DNA of 64,000 nucleotides from an uncultured Thermoplasmata archaeon (GCA_963715645.1 OY970259.1:1208545-1272544), one strand, 5' to 3'. Shown: positions 31,511-45,733, counted from the stretch's first letter. A program made the numbers and translations. The notes: generated by a model from the sequence alone, not told the origin.

Positions 31511-33924
31511 TTGTGGCCACTCTCGAGTACCCGGCTGGACCTCGACGTGAACTTCGCGAGCGAGGAGTTTCGGGGGCGCCTGACCGTTTTCGGTCTCGGG
31601 AGCCGGTCGGAGGTGGAGCTCGACTGCGAGGACCTAATGGTCGAGGAGGTCCGTCAGGGAGCGACGGTGATCCCCTTCCACTTCGACCGCTCCCGGAGGA
31701 AGTTGGTCATTCCCAAGTCACCCACGGGGAGCGGCCCCATCCGAATCTCCTACTCGGGCCGGGCCTCGAGGGACCTCCAGACCGGCTTCTTCGTTTCCCG
31801 GCTCGGGGAGGGCAAGGCGCTCACCACCATGATGGAACCCGAAGGTTGCCGCCGATTCCTTCCGTGCTTCGACCGGCCGAGCGAGAAGGCCGTCTTCCGG
31901 CTGCGGGTCGTTACCGACCAGTCGCTCGTCGCAATCTCCAACTCGGAGAGCGAGAGCCGCCTCCTTCCCGACGGGCGCCGGGAATGGACGTTCGCGCAGA
32001 CCCCTCCGATGTCGACGTATCTCCTTTACCTAGGGATAGGTGCGTTCACCGAGACCGAGTCCAGCGAGAGCGGAACCCGGATCGTGGTCGCGTCCACTCC
32101 CGAGGACGCCCCCAACGCCGCGAGAGCCCTCCAACTTCCCGGAGCGGCCGTCCGGTGGTACCGGGGAGTTCTACGAGGTCCCCTACCCGTTGCGCAAATT
32201 GCACTTCGTCGCCCTGACCGACTTCTGGGCGGGGATGGAGAACTGGGGAGCGATCGCCGGCGATGATTCCTACTTCGCGTTCGGCGAGACCGCCAGCCCG
32301 AGCGGCGTGCGCATGGCCGTTGAGACGATCGCCCACGAGGTCGCCCACCAGTGGTTCGGGGATCTGGTGACGCTCTATGACTGGAACGACCTCTGGCTCA
32401 ACGAATCGTTCGCGACGTTAGTCGTTCCGAAGATCACGGAACGTGCGCACCTCCGAGAGGACCCGTGGGGTGAGTTCATGATCCGTATCGCTGGGGCGGG
32501 TTCGCCGACTCTCTGCGCGCCACCCATCCCGTGGCGCCCGACTCGCTCGACCCGCGGGAGATCATGGCCCGGGCCGACGAAATCACCTACTTCAAGGGAG
32601 GGCAGCTCCTTCGGATGATCGAAGGGTATCTCGGGGCCGAGGTATTCCGGGCCGGGGTCTCGGCATACCTCCGACGGCATGCCTACGGCAACGCCCGCAG
32701 CGAGGACCTCTGGACGGCGCTCGAGGAGTCCTCGGGACGCAAGGTGACCTCGGTGATGCGAGCGTGGGTCGACCGACCCGGCCACCCCCGCGTGGTCGTC
32801 GAGGGCACCTCCGGGACACTTCGGCTTTCCCAGGAGCGATTCTCCTTCCTGCCCCGGGAGACCGAGGAGCCCCCGTGGCCAATCCCGCTGACCTTCGAGC
32901 TGGCGGGGGCGCGCCGGTCGATGCTCTTCGATACCCGCGAGGTCGAGATGCAGGTCTCCAACCCCTCCTCGTTCCGGCTCAATCCCGGGCGGACGGGATT
33001 CTACCGCGCCCTGTACCCGGAGGAGCATCGGGCGCTCCTGATCGAGCGGATCCTCGAGACGAGCCCCCTCAATCGCTGGGGGCTGTTGAACGATGCCGAG
33101 GCCTTCCTCCTCTCCGGGGACTACTCGTTGGACGAGTATCTCCGGGTGATCCTGTCGGTCCGCTCGGCGACCGATTACTTGACGGTCGCCGAAGCGTGTC
33201 TGGGCCTGGACCAGCTCCTTCCCTTCCTTCGGGACCACTCCGGATTTCGTGGGGCGTCGCAGCAATTCTATCGGGCCCAACTGGAACGGTTGGGTTGGAC
33301 GGCGAGGGCGGCCGAACCCGACACCAACGGCCTTCTCCGGGAGTCCCTCGGATTGGGACTCTCCCGGCTCGACGACGAGGTGGCCCGTGACCTCTCCGGC
33401 CGGTTTCGGCGGGGATCGATTCGGAAGATCCCGCCCTCCGACCGGCGATCGCCTGGTCCCATGCGCGCTGGGGGGGTACCGGGGCCCTCGACCGGCTCTT
33501 GACCCGGGCCAAGGCGGCCGACACCGACCAGTCGTTCCACGCCGCGCGCGCGCTGGGAGGCCTGCCCGACCCGGCCCTCCTCGCCCAGGCTCTCGAGCGA
33601 ATCTTCGCCCCCGGAATGCGCCTCGGCAACAGCCTGTACCTTCTCCAGGGCATCGCTCGGAACCCCGAGGGCCGGGGTGTGACCTGGGAATGGCTCACCC
33701 GGAACCTTCGGGAGTTCGAGCGAAGGGCCAAGGGAAGCCCCCTTCTGTCGCTCGCCCTCCAATTCACGATCCCCGAGGTGGGGGCCGGCCGCCCGACCGA
33801 GGTCAGGGAGTACTTCGGACGGGAGGAGTTCCCGGGAGCCGCGGTCGGTATCGCGAACGGCCTCGAGCTCATGGAAGTGATGGCCCGTGTGCGGGCTCGG
33901 ATCCCCTCGTTGGGTGCGAACTAG
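31511..33924 (+). CDS. M1-family zinc aminopeptidase (tricorn-interacting-factor F2/F3-like); frame switches near 32160, 32490 and 33430
   Basis: GAMENWGAI-type [21 protein letters not shown] and WLNESFA give the HEXXH-x18-E motif. [14 protein letters not shown] follows. The ERAP1-like C-terminal domain continues through 32531..33502 and 33499..33924. The start codon (TTG 31511) is tentative. Confidence 0.8.
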
Positions 33925-36906: not shown

Positions 36907-37413
36907 ATGAAGGCTCGGGGAACTTGGATGGGAGGCTCCCACATCCTCCTGGAGGACCGGCGGGGCCACCAGGTGACGGTCGACCTCCCGCACGGCGAGG
37001 GAGGTGGGGACCTCGGCACCTCCGCGGTTGAGCTGACGGTCCTCTCGCTGGCCGGGTCCATCCTGACCGTGTTTGCTCAGGTGGCGAAGAAGCGACGGCT
37101 CGCCTTCCAGTCGCTGCGGGTCGATCTCGACGCGGACCAGCCGGAAAAGGCCCCCTCGGTCGCTGCCGTGGAAGGCGTGCTTCACGTCGTGACGTCGGCT
37201 CCGCCGGAGGACGTCGCCAGTGCCCTCGGATTCACGCTCCTAACTTGCCCCGCCGGGGTTCTGTTCGAGCAAGCCCGGATCCCGGTCCGTGTGCATTCGG
37301 AGGTTCACCCCGCCCATCGCGTCGACCCAGCGGCGCGACCTCACCCGGCTGGGGAGCCTCGCCCCGGCGCGAAGCACCTCGGCGACTCCCCCCCCCACGC
37401 TCATGGCGGGCAT
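36907..37413 (+). CDS. OsmC-like protein; no in-frame stop before the following methyltransferase module
   Basis: GTSAVELTVLSLAGSILTVF...LLTCPAGVLF fits the OsmC/Ohr two-Cys-region fold pattern of about 140 aa. A Pro/His-rich linker then follows. Confidence 0.55.
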
Positions 37414-38062
37414 ATGGAGCGGAGAGCCTGGGGCCGCGCGGAGGCGGTCGAGGTGCTCGAGAGTCCCGAGCGTCGAGGGGCTCACGACCCGGACGGGCTA
37501 TGGGCCTGGGTCCACATCGCCCCCGGAGCGACGGTGGTCGATGTCGGCGCGGGGACGGGGTTCTTTGCACTTCCTGCAGCCCGCCGGGTAGGACCTAGCG
37601 GGCACGTCTACGCGGTCGACCTCTCCCCGGAACTCGTCGAGTTCCTGGACGAACGACGGCGCGAGGAGTCGCTCCCCCAGCTCGTTCCGGTCCAGTCGAC
37701 GATCGCGGCCATCCCCCTTGAGTCGGCCATCGCGGACATCGTCCTGCTCGCGAACGTCCTGCACGACCTCCCTCCGCCCTCGGTGGCCGAGGCCGTGCGG
37801 CTGCTCAAGCCCGACGGGCGATTGGTCAACGTCGACTGGAAGAAGTACCGAAAGCCCGGGGGGCCCGCCTCTCGAAATCCGTCTCACGCCCGAGGAGGCG
37901 GTCCAGCGGTTTCGGGACCTCGGGCTCGAGGAGGTCGAGCGCTGGGAACCCGGGCCGTGGCATTACGCCTCCCTCTTCCGACGGACGGCACGAAAGGCCT
38001 CGAATCGAGGGGCAACGATACGAGACGAACCCGTCTCATCTCCCCAGCCTCCTCCTGGGTAA
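37414..38062 (+). CDS. Class I SAM-dependent methyltransferase (frame switch near 37855)
   Basis: VVDVGAGTGFFALPAAR (motif I), VYAVDLSPE and IVLLANVLHD...LLKPDGRLV. The tail LEIRLTPEEAVQRFRDLGLEEVE lies in the 37718..38062 frame. Confidence 0.65.
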
Positions 38063-38291
38063 GTCTCGACCTCGTCGCGAGGCGCATTAGCTCGGACGCC
38101 GAAGAGGTCTCTCGGGACTCGCTTCCTCCTACCGACGACGCGGCCTCAGCGGAGCGTCCGGTCCGGGGCCACCGCAGGGATGGTCGGGAGCTCGGGCGCT
38201 TCGGGTGAAACCGGCTTGACTGAACTGCTTTCCGCCCGGAAACCTCCCTGTACGGACGAGGAGGGACGACCCCTCTCGGGAATCAGCGAAG

Positions 38292-38837
38292 ATGAGCGGA
38301 GCAATCGAAGCAGGGGTCCATGAGCACGCGCTCCTGGGCCTCGAGGAAGAGGCGCCCAAGCCGAACGGAATGTCAATCGTGGTCTTCTCCGGTGACCTGG
38401 ACAAGGTACTGGCGGCGTTCATCATTGCCAACGGGGCCGCCGCGATGGACCTGCCCGTGACGATGTTCTTCACGTTCTGGGGACTCAACGTGCTGCGCCG
38501 CGAAGAGCCCGTCGCGCTCAAGGGCTCGAAGACAAACATCGAGAAGATGTTCGGCCGGATGATGCCGCGGGGACCCGGGAGCCTCAAGCTCTCGCGGATG
38601 AACATGGCCGGTCTCGGGACAAGGATGATCAAGAAGGAGATGTCCAAGAAGCACGTCCTGGACCTACCGCACCTCGTCAAGAGCGCGCAAGACCAAGGGG
38701 TGCGCCTCGTGGCGTGCACGATGTCGATGGACCTGATGGGCATCAAGAAGGAGGAACTCCTTCCTGGGATCGACTACGGCGGTGTCGGCAGCTACGTCGA
38801 CGCAGCGGACCGGAGCCGCATCTCCTTGTTCATCTAG
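38292..38837 (+). CDS. DsrE/DsrF-like sulfur-relay family protein (DsrE2/3-type)
   Basis: MSIVVFSGDLDKVLAAFIIANGAAAM...MFFTFWGL...VRLVACTMSMDLMGI is the conserved pattern of the DsrE-related family, with the active-site Cys in ACTMS. Confidence 0.75.
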   Translation: MSGAIEAGVHEHALLGLEEEAPKPNGMSIVVFSGDLDKVLAAFIIANGAAAMDLPVTMFFTFWGLNVLRREEPVALKGSKTNIEKMFGRMMPRGPGSLKLSRMNMAGLGTRMIKKEMSKKHVLDLPHLVKSAQDQGVRLVACTMSMDLMGIKKEELLPGIDYGGVGSYVDAADRSRISLFI

Positions 38838-39056: not shown

Positions 39057-39312
39057 ATGAATCCGGAGGAGCTCAAGCATTTGAAAGTTGACCGAGTCGT
39101 CGACGCCCGCGGAGTTGCGTGCCCCGGCCCCCTGCTCGAGGCCAAGCGCGAGGTGACGGCGGTCCCGATGCACGGTGTGATGGAGGTCATCTCCTCCGAT
39201 GAGGGAACGACCGAGGACGTGCCGTTGTGGGCGAAGAAGGTGGGCCATGAGTACCCTAGGGACGCTTCCCGACGCAGGGCTCTGGCACGTCTACCTGCGG
39301 CGGAGCAAGTAG
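39057..39312 (+). CDS. tusA: TusA/SirA-like sulfur carrier (restored by removing one C from the CCC at 39255-39257)
   Basis: DARGVACPGPLLEAKR is the CPxP persulfide-carrier motif. In the shifted frame the C-terminus reads ...LGTLPDAGLWHVYLRRSK, typical of TusA. It ends at TAG 39310-39312, which overlaps a GTG. Confidence 0.75.
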
Positions 39313-39737
39313 TGTCCGAAGCGGCTGCCGCACGCCACCCGAAGGTGTTGGTGTTCTCCACCAACGCGATCTCCGACATGGGGATCGACCTCGCCGGCAG
39401 CTCCCACATGGACTACTCCGCGGCGGTCCGCGTGATCGCCGTGCCGTGCTCCGGCGGGATCAACCCGGCGTGGATCCTCCACGCCGTACAGGCGGGGTTC
39501 GATGGCGTCTTCGTCGCGGCCGACGGAGCCGAGTGCGCGTTTCTCCCGGACTGTGTGGCCCGGACCGGCCGCATCGTGGCAGATGCCCAGACCCTCCTGC
39601 GGAACAACGGGGTGGACCCGGCGCGGGTCAAGACCGCGGCGATCTGCTCGGTGTGCTCCGAGCCCTTCGTGAACCACATGAAGCAGTTCGGCAAGGCCCT
39701 CGGGGAGATCCCCGCGGTCGCCGGAGCACCTGCATGA
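39312..39737 (+). CDS. MvhD/FlpD-like domain protein with atypical cysteine pattern
   Basis: KVLVFSTNAISDMGIDLAGSS...VRVIAVPCSGGINPAWILHAVQAGFDGVFVAA parallels MvhD (FCCNWC.YAGADLAG...VPCSGrv...GADGV). The N-terminal Cys cluster is replaced. Its stop overlaps the hdrA ATG (ATGA). Confidence 0.65.
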   Translation: MSEAAAARHPKVLVFSTNAISDMGIDLAGSSHMDYSAAVRVIAVPCSGGINPAWILHAVQAGFDGVFVAADGAECAFLPDCVARTGRIVADAQTLLRNNGVDPARVKTAAICSVCSEPFVNHMKQFGKALGEIPAVAGAPA

Positions 39738-41569
39738 CGGTGACATCGCCCCCCTCCCAGTACGACGTGCTCGTCCTCGGCGCGGGGGTGGGAGGGATGG
39801 AGTCCGCCCTCACGCTGGGCGACATGGGATTCCGGGTCCTGCTGGTGGAGAAGGAGAGCAGCGTGGGTGGCCGGATGATCCTGCTCAGCAAGGTCTTCCC
39901 GACGCTGGACTGCGCGAGTTGCATTTCCACTCCTAAGATGGCGGCCGTGAACAACCATCCCAACGTCCGACCCCTCGTCTACTCGCAGGTCGACGATATC
40001 ACTCCCCGCCCGGAGGGTGGGTTCCTCGTCCACCTGACCCGGAAACCTACGTTCGTCGATTTCGCCAAATGCACCGGGTGTGCGCTCTGCGAGGCCGCCT
40101 GCACGGTCGCTGTCCCGGACGAGTTCAATTACGACCTCGCGGCCCGACGGGCCGCCCACATCGCCTTCCCCCAGGCGGTGCCGAAGAAGGCGGTCATCAC
40201 GCGACGGGGGACCTCACCCTGCTCCTTCACGTGCCCCGCGGGAGTGAAGCCCCACGGGTACGTCTCCCTCGTGCGCGCCGGAAAGTACGAGGAAGCCTTC
40301 CGTCAGCACTTGGAGGACGCTCCGCTTGTGGGCGTACTCAGCCGGGCCTGCTATGCCCCGTGCGAGGGCGAGTGTACCCGAGGGGAGCTCGAGGGCCCCG
40401 TGGCCATCCGCGGGATCAAGCGGTTCATGGCCGACCGGTACTATGCGGCTCACCCCATCCCCGAATACGGCCCGCCGAAGAAGGGTCGCGACCCGAAGGT
40501 CGCGATCGTCGGCTCCGGACCGAGCGGCCTCTCCGCAGCGTTCTTCCTCGGCCGCTCTGGCTACGAGGTAACGATCTTCGAGGCCGAGAGCGAACCCGGC
40601 GGGATCTTGCGCTGGGGGATCCCGGCCTATCGACTTCCCAAGGATGTCCTCGCGCGCGACCTCGCGAACATCACGGCCCTCGGGGTCCGCATCCAGACCA
40701 ACCAGCGCGTCACCTCGGTGGCGGCACTCCGCGAGCAGGGGTTCGATGCCGTGTTCGTGGCGTCCGGAGACCGAGGCGGTCGTAAGCTGGCAGTCCCGGG
40801 CGAGGACCTCGACGGGGTCTACGACGCGGTCCAGTACCTTCACGACCTGAACGCGGGCCGCCCGCCCGACCTTTCGGGCAAGACGGTAGTGGTGATCGGA
40901 GGCGGGAACGTCGCCATCGATTCCGCCCGCAGCGCGCTGCGTCTCCAGGCCCGCTCCGTCAAGATGTTCTGCTTAGAAGCACCGGGGGAGATGCCGGCCC
41001 ACCCCTGGGAGATCCAGGAGGCGACCGACGAGGGGGTCCTGCTCACCAACTCCTGGGGGGTCGGCAAAGTCCTTGGGCACGACCGGCAGGTCATGGGCAT
41101 CGAGCTCGTCCGGTGCACCTCGGTGTTCGACCAGGAGCACCGATTCCGTCCGACCTTCGACCCATCGGTTCGCGAGACCGTACCCGCCGACGTGATCATC
41201 ACGGCGATCGGTCTGGCTCCCAACACGGGGGCCTTTGCCTCCGAGGTCGAGCTCCAGCGGAACGGTACGTTCAACGTGAACCCTGAGACCCTCGCCACCT
41301 CGGTTCCGTACGTCTTCGCTGGCGGGGACGCCGTTACGGGCCCCTCGATGATCGTGACCGCGATCGGGCAGGGGAAGCGAGCCGCCTTCTACATCGACCG
41401 TCTTCTTCAGGGCCTTCCGCTCGAGGGGGTCAAGTTTGACGAGCGGTTGCCGAGCGCCGACCGCATGGCGGTGGCGACGGAAGCCCGCAAGGACACGGCC
41501 CCGCGCACGCCGATCCCGGTCGTTCGAACTCCCATCCCCCAGTCGGGTCACCTCGTTCGAGGAGTATGA
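39734..41569 (+). CDS. hdrA: HdrA-like flavoprotein, N-terminal part, carrying a nested GltD/NfnB-like NAD(P)H:FAD module
   Basis: VLVLGAGVGGMESAL...GGRM...FPTLDCASCI...CTGCALCEAAC...FPQAVP are HdrA motifs. Then CPAGV...YAPCEGECTRG...VAIVGSGPSGLSAAF...GGILRWGIPAYRLP...VVVIGGGNVAIDSA...VFAGGDAV is GltD/NfnB-like. Confidence 0.8.
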   Translation: MTVTSPPSQYDVLVLGAGVGGMESALTLGDMGFRVLLVEKESSVGGRMILLSKVFPTLDCASCISTPKMAAVNNHPNVRPLVYSQVDDITPRPEGGFLVHLTRKPTFVDFAKCTGCALCEAACTVAVPDEFNYDLAARRAAHIAFPQAVPKKAVITRRGTSPCSFTCPAGVKPHGYVSLVRAGKYEEAFRQHLEDAPLVGVLSRACYAPCEGECTRGELEGPVAIRGIKRFMADRYYAAHPIPEYGPPKKGRDPKVAIVGSGPSGLSAAFFLGRSGYEVTIFEAESEPGGILRWGIPAYRLPKDVLARDLANITALGVRIQTNQRVTSVAALREQGFDAVFVASGDRGGRKLAVPGEDLDGVYDAVQYLHDLNAGRPPDLSGKTVVVIGGGNVAIDSARSALRLQARSVKMFCLEAPGEMPAHPWEIQEATDEGVLLTNSWGVGKVLGHDRQVMGIELVRCTSVFDQEHRFRPTFDPSVRETVPADVIITAIGLAPNTGAFASEVELQRNGTFNVNPETLATSVPYVFAGGDAVTGPSMIVTAIGQGKRAAFYIDRLLQGLPLEGVKFDERLPSADRMAVATEARKDTAPRTPIPVVRTPIPQSGHLVRGV

Positions 41570-41576
41570 GACGGTC

Positions 41577-42467
41577 ATGAACGAAGCCCAGGCGAGGGAG
41601 AGCGCCAACCGCTGCCTGGACTGCGGCGTGTGCTCGGAGTGCCGGGAGTGCATCGCCGCCTGCCCGGCGGACGCGATCGACCTCACCATGCGGGCCCACG
41701 CAGAAACCGTCACCGTCCGGTCGGTCGCCCTCGCCACGGGGTTCTCTCCCTTCGACGCGCGCCAGAAGCCGGCGTTCGGGTTCGGGCGCTTCCCCAACGT
41801 CATCACCGGCCCGCAGATGGACCGCATCCTCGCCCCCACCCGGCCGTTCAACGCGGTGGTCCGCCCCTCCGATGGCAAGATGCCTTCCAACGTCGCGTTC
41901 GTCCTGTGCACCGGTTCGCGAGACGAACAGGTCGGCAACCGTCTCTGCTCGCGGGTGTGCTGCATGTACTCGATGAAGCAGGCCCAGCTGCTCATGGGGT
42001 CGCTCCCGCTCGCGGACGTGACGGTCTACTACATCGACATCCGGGCGTTCGGTAAGGGGTACGAGGAGTTCTTCCAGCAGACGAAGGGGATGAGCGTCGC
42101 GTTCACCAAGGGCAAGGTCTCCCGCATCGAGGAGACGGACGACAGCGACCTCCTCGTGCACTACGAGGACATCGAGGGCGGAGGCGGCCACAAGGTCGCA
42201 CGTCACGACCTGGTCGTGCTCGCGGTCGGTATGCTCCCCAACCAGACCCCGCTGGGGATGTTCCCCCAGGGAGGTCCGGCCAAGGATGCCTACTCCTACG
42301 TCCAGGAGACGAACGAGGAGTTGGAGCCCGGCACGACAAGCCTCGATGGGGTGTTCGTCATCGGCTCCGCCACCGCGGTCCGCGATATCCCCGATACGAT
42401 CGTGCATTCGGAAGCGGCATCCGCGCAGATCGCCGCCTACCTCAAGCGCGCGGAGGCGAAGGCATGA
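41577..42467 (+). CDS. hdrA: HdrA-like flavoprotein, C-terminal part (either a separate ORF from ATG 41577 or fused to 39734..41569 by a frame switch near 41520-41560)
   Basis: RCLDCGVCSECRECIAACP...ATGFSPFD...NVITGPQMDR...VAFVLCTGSRDEQVGNRLCSRVCCMYSMKQA...YYIDIRAFGKGYEEF are colinear with the second half of methanogen HdrA. Confidence 0.75.
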   Translation: MNEAQARESANRCLDCGVCSECRECIAACPADAIDLTMRAHAETVTVRSVALATGFSPFDARQKPAFGFGRFPNVITGPQMDRILAPTRPFNAVVRPSDGKMPSNVAFVLCTGSRDEQVGNRLCSRVCCMYSMKQAQLLMGSLPLADVTVYYIDIRAFGKGYEEFFQQTKGMSVAFTKGKVSRIEETDDSDLLVHYEDIEGGGGHKVARHDLVVLAVGMLPNQTPLGMFPQGGPAKDAYSYVQETNEELEPGTTSLDGVFVIGSATAVRDIPDTIVHSEAASAQIAAYLKRAEAKA

Positions 42468-44201
42468 CGGCGCGCAAGATCGGGGTCGTCGTCGTGCCAG
42501 TGCGGGGGCAACATCTCGGACTACGTCGACACCGAAAAGGTGCGGCAAGAGGCCAGCAAGGAGGCCGACGTCGTGACCTGCCCAGGTTCAGATGTTCGCT
42601 TGCTCCGACGCCGCCCAGCAGGCCGTGATCCAGGAGATCCGCGAGAAGAAGCTCGACGGCATTGTCGTCTGCTCCTGTTCCCCGAAGCTCCACACCGCGA
42701 CCTTCCGCGCCATGGCCGAGCGGGCCGGCCTCAACCCGTACGAGTACAGCCAGGTCAATATCCGCGAACAGTGCTCCTGGGCCCACACCCACGACCGGCC
42801 GGGGGCCACCGAGAAGGCGCTCGACCTCGTCCGGGCCGGCGTGGCCAAGACCGCGCTCTCCCAGCCGCTCGAGAGAATGCGGGTCGAGACCCTTCCCCAG
42901 GCCCTCGTGCTCGGCGCCGGGGTCGCCGGACTGCGGGCCGCCGTCGCCCTGTCGGACCTCGGGATCTCTGTCCACCTCGTGGAGAAAGCGGCCGCCCCGG
43001 GGGGACAGGTCGTCCGGTGGGGCGGCCTCTTCCCGAACGACAAGGTGGGCGGGGAGCTCGTCCAGAGCCTCCTCGCGGACGTGGGTCGACGGGAGAACAT
43101 CGTGACTGTACTTCAACAGCGAGCTGGTCGAGAAGGCGGGGCGGATCGGCGAATTCGCCGTCAAGGTCCGCACCGGAACCGGGGACCTCATCTCCCTCCA
43201 GGTCGGAGCGATCGTCGTCGCCACCGGATTCGAGCCCTACACGCCGAAGAACGGGGAGTTCGGCTTCGGCCTCGAGGGTGTGGTGACGCTTCCCGGAGTT
43301 CAAGGAACTCCTCGCCACCCGACCGAACCGCCTCGTCTATCGAGGGCGGCGAGATCCGGACGATCGCCTACATCTACTGCGTCGGCTCCCGCGAGGCGTC
43401 GAAGGAAGGTGCCGGGCACTCGTACTGCTCGCGGTACTGCTGCAGCGCTACCTCCCACATCGCGACGGTCGTCGAGCCGCGCTGGACCCGACCATCCACC
43501 AGTTCCACCTCTTCCGGGACGTGCGGACCTACGGGAAGTACGAGGCGCTCTACGAGCACGCGCTGCGCTCGGGCTCCCTCTTCCTCCGGTACGGCGAGGA
43601 CGGACCCCCCCGTGGTCGCGCGAGGGGACGGAGGGCTCCGGTCCTGAAGGTCCACGACCGCCTGATGCGCGGGCGAGGAGGTCGAGATCCGGCCCGACCT
43701 CGTCGTGCTGGTCACGGGGATGGTGCCCCGGGAGAACGCCCGCGCTCACGGACGTCCTCAAGCTCCCGGTCGGCCAGGACGGGTTCTTCCACGAGATCCA
43801 CGTCAAGCTGCGGCCCGTCGAGACGGTCATCGATGGGGTGTTCATTGTCGGAGCGGCCCAGGGACCGAAGAACGTCGCGGAGAGCGTCGCGAAGCGCTCT
43901 GGCCGCGGTCTCGAAGACCGGTGCGCTGCTGCTCAAGGGGTACGTCGACCTCGACCCGCTGGTCGCCAAGGTCGACCCGAACCTCTGCGTCTGGTGCGAC
44001 GCGTGCCTGAAGGCCTGCCCGTACGGGGCGATCGATTCGGTATCCTACGGCGAGAAGCAGGTCGCGGAGGTCAACCCGATCCTGTGCAAGGGCGAGGGCG
44101 GGTGCGTGCCGGTTTGCCCGAAGCAGGCGGTCGCCGTTCAGGGGTACACCAACGAACAGATCACGTCCATGATCGACGCGATGGCGAGGGGGGCGGCATG
44201 A
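42464..44201 (+). pseudogene. Second HdrA-type gene (N-terminal Cys domain, FAD domain, C-terminal 2x[4Fe-4S] ferredoxin domain) broken by about 11 frame switches
   Basis: MTARKIGVVV / CQCGGNISDYVDTEKV / MFACSDAAQQ...IVVCSCSPKLHTATF...NIREQCSWAH...LVLGAGVAGL / LYFNSELVEK...VVATGFEPY / IYCVGSRE...YCSRYCC / RDVRTYGKYE / LVVLVTGMVP / FFHEIHVKLRPVETVIDGVFIVGAAQGP / CVWCDACLKACP...CKGEGGCVPVCP. Each piece lies in a different frame. Confidence 0.75.
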
Positions 44202-44449
44202 CGGGTAAGACCCAGCTCCGGAGCCTCAGCGAGGTCTTCCGGGATGGGATGCTCGAGGCGGACCGCGTAGCCGCCGTGCTGCGTCAGGGCCCCAGGACCC
44301 TCCCCGAGATCGCCGGAGCGCTCGGGGCACCGGTCCCCGAGGTGACGAAGTGGGTCATGGCGATGCGGCGTTACGGGCGGGTCCACGAACTTTCCAAGGC
44401 GCGGTCGGACGACTACTACCAGTACCAGCTTGCGGAGGAAGACCGATGA
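44198..44449 (+). CDS. Small (83 aa) winged-helix-like protein embedded in the hdr cluster
   Basis: ATG overlaps the hdrA2 stop, and its own stop overlaps the hdrC ATG (ATGA). LPEIAGALGAPVPEVTKWVMAMRRYGRVHEL looks like an HTH plus wing. No Cys residues. Confidence 0.5.
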   Translation: MTGKTQLRSLSEVFRDGMLEADRVAAVLRQGPRTLPEIAGALGAPVPEVTKWVMAMRRYGRVHELSKARSDDYYQYQLAEEDR

Positions 44450-44754
44450 AGGTCGACACGGAATTCCTGAACGGACTGGACCTGAGCGGCGACTTCGACG
44501 CGCGAAGGTGCATCAACTGCGGCACCTGCTCGGCGCTCTGCCCGCTCGGGGTCGAGCTCCTGCCCCGCCGGCTATTCCGTTACGTCCTCTTGGGAAATGC
44601 GGAGGCGGTCCGCGCCCAGCGAGACACGATCTTCAGCTGCCTCCTCTGCCGGATGTGCGAGGCGAACTGCCCTGGTGGGGTCCACATCGCCGAGAACGTC
44701 CGGGCGCTGCGGACCATCGTCAACCGCGATGTCCACCACCTCGCGGAGGCCTAG
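44446..44754 (+). CDS. hdrC: HdrC-like 2x[4Fe-4S] ferredoxin subunit
   Basis: CINCGTCSALCP and CLLCRMCEANCP are two CxxCxxCxxxCP motifs with HdrC-like spacing. Confidence 0.8.
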   Translation: MKVDTEFLNGLDLSGDFDARRCINCGTCSALCPLGVELLPRRLFRYVLLGNAEAVRAQRDTIFSCLLCRMCEANCPGGVHIAENVRALRTIVNRDVHHLAEA

Positions 44755-44762
44755 GAGGGATC

Positions 44763-45733
44763 GTGCCCGTTCCGGTGGCCAGCACCCTCGGGATGCTGGG
44801 GGACAACCTCCGCAAGCGACGGAGCGCGCTTCCGATCGGCCGTCGGAAGCTGACCGCCTGGACCCGGGGCCTCGACATTCCCAGCGAGGGAGCGACGATG
44901 CTCTTCACGGGCCAGATGTGGCAGATGGTGCCGGCGATCAACGCCATGAGCCGGCAGCTCGCGAAGTACGAGAGATCCGGGAGCGCCCGACTCTTCGGCC
45001 TCGCGCGGTCCGTGAACAAGGTCGTCAACCTCACCCCGCTGCTCGCCCGCACCTCCGCCAAGGAGCGCCGAGCGTACGACGAACGACTACGCAACATCGC
45101 CCGACTCCTGAAGGCTGCCGGCGTGCCGTTCAGCTACCAGGTTAAGGCCGACCTCTACGCCGGAGCCCTCGCGTACGATGAGGGACTCGACCGTACGTTC
45201 GTGGCCCACGCCCAGTACGTGTATGGCGTGCTCCGGGAGCACGGGGTCCAGCGAGTGATCACCGTGGACCCCCACACGACCAACATGCTGCGCAGCGTCT
45301 ACCCGAAGGTCGTCCCCGGATACGAGCTCGAGGTCCGAAGCTATCTCGAGGTCCTGGCCGAGCGGAGCCTCACCCCGCTCCAGCGGGTCGGGGGGTCCGC
45401 CACGATCCACGACTCGTGCGTCTACGCGCGGTACGAGGGGGTCGTCGACCAGCCGCGAACCCTGCTCGCCGGCGCCGGGGTCCGGATCGCCGAGCCCGAG
45501 CTCTCCGGGAAGATGACGTTCTGCTGCGGGGGGCCTCTCGAGACGCTGTTCCCGGGAAAGTCCGCAGAGATCGCGACGGCGGCGTATCGAGCAGCTCCAG
45601 GCGGTGGATCGTCGGGTCGTGACCGCCTGTCCGCTCTGCCTCTCGAACCTGAGCCGCGTGGCCCCGCCCGAAACAAAAGTCCGGGACATCTCGGATTACC
45701 TGGTCGAGGCCTACTGTCCGGGCAGAAGCCTGA
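44763..45733 (+). CDS. hdrB: HdrB-like CCG-domain subunit (frame switch near 45590; 3' end not determinable)
   Basis: TVDPHTTNML, IHDSCVYARY and MTFCCGGP form the first CCG domain. After the switch, VVTACPLCLSNL forms the second. GTG start at 44763. No clear stop appears after DISDYLVEAY. Confidence 0.7.

Follow-up and report, generated by a model that had tools for sequence, protein, structure and literature searches.

The stretch of DNA considered here comprises 64,000 nucleotides (nt) from an uncultured Thermoplasmata archaeon (GCA_963715645.1 OY970259.1:1208545-1272544; below referred to as the window, with positions counted from its first letter; G+C content 65.4%). Its region 39734-42467 raises the question of whether two adjacent open reading frames (ORFs), which together resemble the flavoprotein HdrA interrupted by an NAD(P)H-binding unit of the GltD/NfnB type, represent two polypeptides or one, and what such a protein might do. 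HdrA-based complexes constitute one of the four known flavin-based electron-bifurcating families; to our knowledge, NAD(P)H-linked HdrA versions (HdrL, HdrA-NfnB) are widespread and none of them has been purified. According to our analysis, 39734-42467 almost certainly encodes one HdrL-type flavo-iron-sulfur protein of 910 amino acids (aa), the stop codon within it being a single-base assembly artefact. The favoured explanation taken as a whole (a single gene, the artefact, the operon and the inferred function) we regard as probable.

One gene interrupted by a spurious base

In the uncorrected sequence ORF1 extends from ATG 39734 to TGA 41567-41569 and encodes 611 aa, and the next frame runs from ATG 41577 to 42467. 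These codons, the GGAG preceding ATG 41577 and the protein motifs quoted in the initial annotation of the window were all found in the translations. The features which define the junction are the following.

39734-42467, plus strand: hdrA with a nested GltD/NfnB module (HdrL-type), 910 aa; the window copy contains one spurious base
41541, plus strand: spurious extra A, the source of the frameshift, missing in the assemblies L003 and L004
41567-41569, plus strand: false TGA stop, met only through the extra base, as seen from translation before and after correction

The initial annotation had left open whether the protein is split here or is one chain broken by one indel, and this ambiguity proved to be real, as tblastn and frameshift-aware alignment located a switch of the reading frame at 41532-41543. 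The 90%-identity cluster of ORF1 includes P0121, a protein 910 aa long, which is encoded on contig L003, assembled independently from run SRR25213560. Removal of A 41541 yields a 910-aa translation that is 100% identical to P0121, and its junction reads ...VVRTPIPRRVTSFEEYE..., which replaces the junction peptide ELPSPSRVTSF given initially. With the provisional fusion as a query, more than 115 proteins of 898-948 aa were retrieved (64-86% identity at 98-100% query coverage), mostly from Thermoplasmata metagenome-assembled genomes (MAGs), and none of them was split. Since the correction restores P0121 and the relatives are single ORFs, the fused single-chain reading is right. The same follows from the methionine of ATG 41577 (Met615), which is not conserved among the relatives, so that the break is to be considered an assembly artefact. 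The suggestion of one chain broken by one indel is thus borne out, both by the independent assemblies, in which the extra A is missing, and by the homologues, while that of two polypeptides has to be abandoned, the stop being present in this assembly only. Placement of the extra base within the C5 homopolymer was rejected, as direct comparison puts the extra A after C5; programmed frameshifting was rejected too, the extra base being missing in the other assemblies. Noise prevented the mapping of frameshifts from a plot of GC3 (G+C content at third codon positions) phase along the entire window.

The extra A is one of many errors of this kind. Comparison of window positions 31244-52488 (21.2 kb) with the L003 contig gave 99.48% identity; the two sequences differ by 77 substitutions and by 34 single-base indels, the window having a surplus base in 32 cases and lacking one in two. 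In a three-way alignment with L004 (98.9% identical), 29 extra bases, including that at 41541, appeared private to the window and 13 private to L004, and three occurred in both of these, at GTACC in two cases. The indels are enriched at GTAC (7 of 34, P = 2.5e-5; mostly GTAC -> GTACC), namely at 31530, 32161, 35886, 37848, 39254, 46388 and 50094 of the window, a pattern suggestive of systematic miscalling of bases at a motif that may be methylated. Spurious insertions also disrupt tusA, hdrB and unrelated flanking genes, and their density amounts to about 1.5 single-base insertions per kb of the region. When the private insertions were removed, all eight genes of the operon described below became full length; seven of the corrected proteins are identical to those of L003, and the second HdrA paralogue (HdrA') matches at 567 of 575 positions. 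Because fragmenting insertions are so many, split ORFs elsewhere are suspect as well and no biological interpretation should be attached to them.

The errors are unevenly distributed, as the indel density reaches 7.5 per kb in the second hdrA gene versus 0.37 per kb in the 910-aa hdrA. The former gene (42464-44201) contains 13 spurious insertions and about half of all the substitutions in the 21-kb comparison, and this stretch may be poorly polished or strain-mixed. A gene of an OsmC-methyltransferase fusion protein located upstream of dsrE2 (36907-38208; 384 aa in L003) is broken by the insertion at 37848.

A real split, whereby the strain would either make polypeptides of 611 and 296 aa (the latter from ATG 41577) that assemble non-covalently or possess a pseudogene, is in agreement with the stop at 41567-41569 and with the location of GGAG 12 nt upstream of ATG 41577, and both pieces were recorded by gene callers (P0100 and P0124). 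Nevertheless, we consider it highly improbable, as the extra base is missing from two assemblies of the same population (99.5% and 98.9% identity), the 29 private 1-nt insertions per 21 kb strike unrelated genes and are GTAC-enriched, 34 indels versus 77 substitutions with an insertion bias of 32:2 make an unnatural mutation spectrum, Met615 is unconserved, and the corrected protein coincides with P0121 along its entire length. What the window holds is an ordinary intact member of its group; the gene is neither split nor newly rearranged.

Position of the NAD(P)H module within HdrA

The repaired protein is composed of four parts, the first of which begins with a Rossmann fold for flavin adenine dinucleotide (FAD).

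39734-40207, plus strand: HdrA part 1 (aa 1-158), with the GAGVGG FAD Rossmann fold, FPTLDCASC, C113/116/119/123 and FPQAVP; from alignment to 5ODC_A and 8RVU_a
40208-41527, plus strand: GltD/NfnB-type module (aa 159-598); from Pfam, PDB-chain alignments and conservation
41528-41630, plus strand: permuted GltD/NfnB N-terminal segment (aa 599-632: ...SFEEYETVMNEAQARESANRCLDCGV, C627, C630); from Fer4_20 and the re-permuted alignment
41631-42467, plus strand: HdrA part 2 (aa 633-910), with C633/636/639/643, the remaining FAD domain and C725...C738-x3-C742-C743; from alignment and conservation

Residues 12-165 of ORF1 match HdrA of Methanothermococcus (5ODC_A 146-298, E = 4e-40), and residues 158-561 match proteins of the NfnB/GltD type (9N5U_A, E = 5e-78; 4YLF_B 42-461, E = 7e-65; GltD, E about 1e-41). 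Pfam recognized Fer4_20, Pyr_redox_2 and NAD_binding_8 in ORF1, and the NCBIfam models PRK12771 and YgfK also cover the module region. After in silico deletion of aa 159-630 from the repaired protein, the remaining 438 aa aligned collinearly with HdrA through a gapless splice (E about 1e-100 with both 8RVU_a 154-576 and 5ODC_A 146-570); hence the module is nested in the inserted ferredoxin domain, and the agreement greatly exceeds that expected by chance. It is located between FPQAVPKKAVITRRG and the second motif CSECRECIAACP, the ferredoxin motifs C113/116/119/123 and C633/636/639/643 being separated by 472 aa. The nesting of an NAD(P)H module inside HdrA, proposed initially, is therefore confirmed by the domain matches of ORF1 and by the collinear alignment after excision. 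The range then assigned to it, 40199-41600, roughly coincides with that established here (aa 159-632, nt 40208-41630).

The module contains C163, C167, C206/C210/C214, K229, the FAD fold VAIVGSGPSG and the NAD(P)H fold VVVIGGGNVAIDSA. It possesses the features of GltD and NfnB, i.e., the FAD and NAD(P)H Rossmann folds and an alpha-helical 2x[4Fe-4S] domain (Pfam; 4YLF_B, 5JCA_L and 6S6S_G; Foldseek TMt 0.75-0.80). All 22 predicted cluster-ligand cysteines and K229 are invariant in 62 homologues. In the HdrA part, C63 of FPTLDCASC aligns with Cys197 of methanogen HdrA, and the CxGSRD...CSRVCC [4Fe-4S] motif next to FAD (C725, C738, C742 and C743) is HdrA-aligned and invariant in the same 62 homologues. 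The N-terminal Fe-S and the C-terminal ferredoxin domains of HdrA are absent from the 910-aa protein, the alignment spanning only 5ODC_A 146-570. The AlphaFold2 (AF2) model of the whole protein (pLDDT 84.3, pTM 0.72), when submitted to Foldseek, retrieved StnC, Bfu-type NfnA and NfnB (TMt 0.75-0.79) and HdrA (8rwn_A, TMt 0.80).

The module is circularly permuted and carries a lysine at a cluster-ligand position

In comparison with GltD and NfnB, the module shows a circular permutation. Of the NfnB N-terminal motif, only the part from the third Cys onwards stands at its beginning, namely PCSFTCP, whose C163 and C167 correspond to C52 and C56 of the T. maritima protein. The N-terminal helix, which bears the first two Cys (SFEEYE...ANRCLDC), is found behind the module and leads without interruption into ferredoxin motif 2 of HdrA; the canonical order, with the helix and RCLxC first, does not occur in the 910-aa protein. 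We call the module permuted on the basis of three observations. Positions 2-39 of Pfam Fer4_20 match the segment after the module. A re-permuted construct, in which aa 599-632 are placed ahead of aa 159-598, is collinear with 4YLF_B 17-461, whereas the native-order protein is not, and the re-permutation raises the bit scores with 4YLF_B (222.8 to 237.5), 5VJ7_A (206.7 to 224.4) and GltD (144.5 to 163.2). Finally, in the best PDB matches, StnC (8OH5_C) and Bfu-type NfnA (9N5U_A, 9BOV_A), the RCxxCG segment is also found after the module, at about residues 540-595. The stretch F-x-E...RCL-x-C, initially likened to GltD-type proteins, was correctly recognized, being the GltD/NfnB N-terminal segment according to Fer4_20 and the re-permuted alignment, and aa 599-632 are predicted, from the sequence alignments and the solved homologues, to complete the GltD-type Fe-S domain.

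K229 aligns with K170 of StnC and with a Glu of NfnB (alignments and PMC10482914). K170 of StnC is a ligand of the proximal cluster, and bifurcating NfnB has Glu at this place (PMC10482914). The more distant HdrL-type relatives share the insertion point and the permuted junction, and their equivalent of residue 229 is Lys or His, never Glu. Histidine was observed in L046, L049 and L054 (from Electrothrix, Thorarchaeota and an unclassified archaeon).

The operon

After correction, the gene of the 910-aa protein is part of an operon with the order dsrE2-tusA-mvhD-hdrA(NfnB)-hdrA'-orf83-hdrC-hdrB, consecutive genes overlapping by 1-4 nt. The other genes are as follows.

38292-38837, plus strand: dsrE2-like sulfur-carrier gene, 181 aa; Pfam DrsE_2 (E = 3e-59), NCBIfam DsrE2 below cut-off
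39057-39312, plus strand: tusA, 84 aa; Pfam TusA (E = 2e-17), CPGP active-site motif, frameshift-aware alignment
39312-39737, plus strand: MvhD/FlpD-like gene, 141 aa; Pfam FlpD (E = 8e-26), identical to L003
42464-44201, plus strand: second hdrA (hdrA'), 574 aa; domain models, window copy with the 13 spurious insertions
44198-44449, plus strand: orf83, conserved, 83 aa, no Cys, between hdrA' and hdrC
44446-44754, plus strand: hdrC, 102 aa, 2x[4Fe-4S] dicluster; NCBIfam HdrC and QmoC N-terminus, Pfam Fer4_17 and Fer4_8
44763-45733, plus strand: hdrB-like, 322 aa, single C-terminal CCG; Pfam CCG, residues 214-296 only

The dsrE2 gene contains no indel, and its protein is identical to that of L003. 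In the window tusA is broken by an extra C at 39254 (GTAC -> GTACC), and removal of this base gives a protein identical to TusA of L003. Owing to the same extra C, tusA and the mvhD/flpD-like gene appear artefactually as one ORF of 226 aa (39057-39737); in intact relatives they are separate, of 84 and 141-148 aa, and overlap by 1 nt. The MvhD/FlpD-like protein gave NCBIfam matches to VhuD and to the MvhD-like C-terminus of HdrA2. HdrA' possesses the N-terminal and C-terminal ferredoxin domains and is devoid of the inserted ferredoxin domain and Cys197, i.e., it carries exactly those domains that are absent from the 910-aa HdrA. No match to orf83 was found in Pfam, NCBIfam or PDB; a faint match to PF0610-like_N was seen, possibly indicating a winged-helix-like protein. 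The hdrB-like gene contains two spurious insertions in the window (45578 and 45720). As the N-terminal half of its product is Cys-free and there is only one CCG motif, the protein would bind one non-cubane cluster (DsrK-type), not two. The operon thus combines the 910-aa HdrA with an HdrB (CCG) and an HdrC, and, as with HdrL, an mvhD-like gene adjoins the fusion gene, here immediately upstream of it.

Distribution and conserved neighbourhood

A scan of species-representative genomes revealed at least 596 loci encoding relatives of the 910-aa protein, and the neighbourhoods of the best 80 of them, 43 with at least 51% identity and 37 with at most 42%, were analyzed. The 43-locus subfamily occurs in Thermoplasmata, Chloroflexota, Actinomycetota, Bacillota, Gemmatimonadota, Deferrimicrobia-type bacteria, Alphaproteobacteria, Ignavibacteriales, Aminicenantes and Verrucomicrobia and shares the arrangement tusA-flpD-hdrA(NfnB)-hdrA'-orf83-hdrC(-like); the conservation of the operon extends from Thermoplasmata to about ten bacterial phyla. 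In this subfamily tusA is adjacent in 39 of the 43 loci, and orf83 is found between hdrA' and hdrC in 35, the remaining loci being cut by contig ends in both cases; a DsrE2 match was detected by tblastn in 29 loci, in 22 of them with at least 45% identity. The 37 distant HdrL-type loci belong to Desulfobacterales, Syntrophobacteraceae, Dehalococcoidia, Thorarchaeota, Methanobacteriota and others, and neither TusA nor DsrE2 was found in them.

The output modules vary within the TusA-linked subfamily. HdrC and HdrB are present in 13 loci, including all those of Thermoplasmata, and in 19 bacterial loci HdrCB is replaced by a QmoC-like subunit composed of an HdrC-like Fe-S part and a NarI-like membrane part, which suggests a quinone-linked version of the complex. 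An example is L038 (12672-13844), the others being L010, L021-L023, L025-L030, L032-L037, L045 and L053.

A gene of an ArsR-type regulator with two Cys is located directly upstream of tusA in 15 loci (e.g., L010 6952-7317), and further recurrent neighbours encode rhodanese (7 loci), DsrE (3), a CsoR-family repressor (3) and hemerythrin (3). These neighbours are compatible with control by thiol or persulfide signals. In the window itself no ArsR-type regulator gene lies between dsrE2 and tusA.

Possible function of the complex

For the NAD(P)H-linked Hdr complex we tentatively propose a scheme in which it acts on sulfur bound to TusA/DsrE2. The paralogues HdrA and HdrA' would pair as a heterodimer at the core of the complex, comparable to the dimer of HdrA in Mvh-Hdr; tandem ANME (anaerobic methanotrophic archaea) HdrA proteins with complementary Cys197 and N-terminal domain were interpreted as a heterodimer as well (PMC9012536). 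NAD(P)H would reduce the FAD of the GltD module, and this FAD, by analogy with StnC, would serve as a non-bifurcating converter between two-electron and one-electron transfer. The electrons would next traverse four clusters, two in the module and two in the ferredoxin domain, before reaching the FAD of HdrA, where the path would branch. One branch would lead via HdrC to HdrB, with its single non-cubane cluster, and HdrB could reduce a persulfide or disulfide presented by TusA/DsrE2, as gene linkage suggests. The other would lead through HdrA', whose N-terminal cluster would be completed by C63, and further through its C-terminal ferredoxin domain to MvhD and a low-potential acceptor, e.g., ferredoxin. 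Extended to the subfamily, the scheme corresponds to a horizontally spread NAD(P)H-dependent enzyme acting on TusA/DsrE2 persulfide, with either HdrCB or a QmoC-like output, that may bifurcate, which we likewise regard as possible rather than probable. If true, the operon would connect the persulfide pools of the cell with NAD(P)H, ferredoxin or quinone, with soil Actinomycetota and Chloroflexia among the hosts. The consistent linkage of the subfamily to TusA, and often to DsrE2, offers a concrete candidate substrate for this enzyme class.

Several facts weigh against this scheme. The CCG site is absent from the 19 QmoC-like loci, so that TusA as the HdrB substrate cannot hold for the subfamily as a whole. 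Low-potential electrons leave methanogen HdrA through the inserted ferredoxin domain; NAD(P)H wiring at that place therefore implies a rerouted electron path. In addition, the MvhD-like protein of the window is devoid of the N-terminal Cys pair, which is usual in MvhD.

Of the other interpretations, the one concerning the module itself assumes two bifurcating flavins in the 910-aa protein, the HdrA FAD and the NfnB-type FAD, as was suggested for the ANME-1 HdrA-NfnB fusions (PMC9012536). The Arg equivalent to R201 of NfnB is indeed present and invariant (R300); at the same time, StnC keeps this Arg, and its FAD was shown to be non-bifurcating (PMC10482914). Moreover, the module is nearer to StnC/Bfu-type NfnA (266 bits) than to NfnB (223 bits) and is permuted like the former, the invariant K229 occupies the position of the Glu ligand of bifurcating NfnB, and no gene of an NfnA-like (NfnA/NfnS) partner is present in the operon. 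Considering these facts, we find two bifurcating flavins improbable; the module FAD is probably a StnC-like, non-bifurcating two-electron/one-electron converter.

With regard to the direction and the substrate, the complex could also operate oxidatively, in an sHdr-like manner, so that the sulfane sulfur of TusA/DsrE2 would be oxidized at HdrB and the electrons, possibly confurcated with those of reduced ferredoxin, would reduce NAD(P)+ at the GltD module. TusA and carriers of the DsrE family are the hallmark companions of sHdr (PMC11094781), HdrA-type complexes are reversible in principle, and the subfamily is often hosted by soil Actinomycetota and Chloroflexia. Still, the operon contains a single HdrC/HdrB set, its HdrA proteins have ferredoxin domains and an MvhD partner, unlike sHdrA, its HdrB has one CCG motif only, and no LbpA gene occurs in the operon or the conserved neighbourhood, which makes the oxidative direction unlikely. 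Somewhat less likely again is a complex with no sulfur substrate at all, i.e., an NAD(P)H:ferredoxin or NAD(P)H:quinone module accompanied by TusA/DsrE2 for, e.g., regulation or cofactor thiolation. It would explain why the QmoC-type variants, which have no CCG catalytic subunit, keep TusA; it accords poorly with the strict adjacency of tusA and its apparent translational coupling to mvhD (1-nt overlap), with the recurrence of rhodanese, DsrE, DsrE2 and thiol/persulfide-type regulators nearby, and with the absence of TusA and DsrE2 from the more distant HdrL-type loci.

Comparison with known systems

The nested architecture is already known in both domains, since ANME-1 HdrA9-11 and HdrL of sulfate reducers have been published. 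Chadwick et al. (2022, PMC9012536) described ANME-1 HdrA9-11 as having their inserted ferredoxin domain interrupted by an NfnB-like stretch of ~500 aa; HdrA9/10/11 resemble the 910-aa HdrA in both the interrupted ferredoxin domain and the complementary tandem paralogues. Proteins of two archaeal MAGs ('Methanobacteriota archaeon' and 'archaeon') display the same insertion point and junction motif at about 39% identity. In contrast to ANME-1, the host of the window belongs to a non-methane-metabolising Thermoplasmata lineage, its operon includes TusA and DsrE2, and a substrate other than CoM-S-S-CoB is proposed. The initial statement that the nested form combined with a TusA/DsrE context was not known in archaea thus stands only in part: the nesting had been published for ANME-1 (PMC9012536), and the TusA/DsrE2 context is conserved and no description of it was found. 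Specifically, in the open-access literature we found no description of the TusA/MvhD/HdrA/DsrE2 operon (only sHdr papers came up), of HdrA functions distributed over two paralogues of which the NfnB-bearing one lacks the N-terminal domain, or of a TusA/DsrE2-linked subfamily in which HdrCB and a QmoC-like subunit alternate as the output module; nor is the insertion mentioned in a preprint on the evolution of HdrA. The residual interest of the locus lies in the TusA-linked subfamily and in the structural prediction of a permuted, Lys-ligated NAD(P)H cassette.

HdrL of Desulfobacterium autotrophicum was reported as a 'heterodisulfide reductase/glutamate synthase fusion' adjoining mvhD (PMC2702500), and an HdrABC/HdrL-MvhD cluster was found to be abundant in Syntrophobacter fumaroxidans grown on sulfate (PMC5947623). 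Like the 910-aa HdrA, these proteins of sulfate reducers combine HdrA with a glutamate-synthase part, an NAD(P)H site and an mvhD neighbour, to which hdrABC is added in S. fumaroxidans. The nested module within one polypeptide and the same junction are found in proteins of Desulfobacterales, Syntrophobacteraceae, Thorarchaeota and Methanobacteriota, which places the 910-aa protein within the HdrL/HdrA-NfnB type. The Desulfobacterales and Syntrophobacteraceae proteins share the insertion point and the permutation; they differ by their low identity (36-42%), larger size (about 1120-1170 aa) and an extra N-terminal region. Furthermore, no TusA/DsrE2 is located near the HdrL of sulfate reducers, and DsrC is its proposed acceptor.

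With MvhADG-HdrABC of methanogens (5ODC, 8RVU) the operon shares the HdrA FAD domain, the inserted ferredoxin domain, CxGSRD...CSRVCC, HdrB, HdrC and the MvhD-like partner, and differs in the splitting of HdrA functions over two paralogues, the lack of a hydrogenase, the one-CCG HdrB and the likely donor, NAD(P)H. Qmo has two HdrA-like paralogues and an MvhD-like domain in common with it and lacks the GltD module; no match to the QmoC membrane subunit was detected in the window, where soluble HdrC and HdrB occur. The sHdr system is similar in its association with TusA and the DsrE family, and is distinguished by two HdrBC sets, LbpA and an HdrA without ferredoxin domains; in the window there are one HdrC and one HdrB, ferredoxin domains are present, and the conserved neighbourhood, to which the search was confined, contains no LbpA.

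As to the module, NfnB/NfnL and GltD (4YLF_B, 5JCA_L, 6S6S_G) have the same pair of Rossmann folds, 2x[4Fe-4S] domain and Cys motifs, but are unpermuted, possess the Glu ligand in the case of NfnB and need an NfnA or GltB partner, which is missing in the window. StnC and Bfu-type NfnA come closer, with the same permutation, Lys at the proximal-cluster ligand position and a module likewise inserted into another Fe-S domain, the differences being their NuoG/HydA-like scaffold and NuoF/NuoE-like bifurcating partners. The presence in the 910-aa protein of the same permuted, Lys-ligated cassette as in the structurally solved StnC and Bfu-type NfnA predicts a point of electron entry or exit rather than a second bifurcation site.

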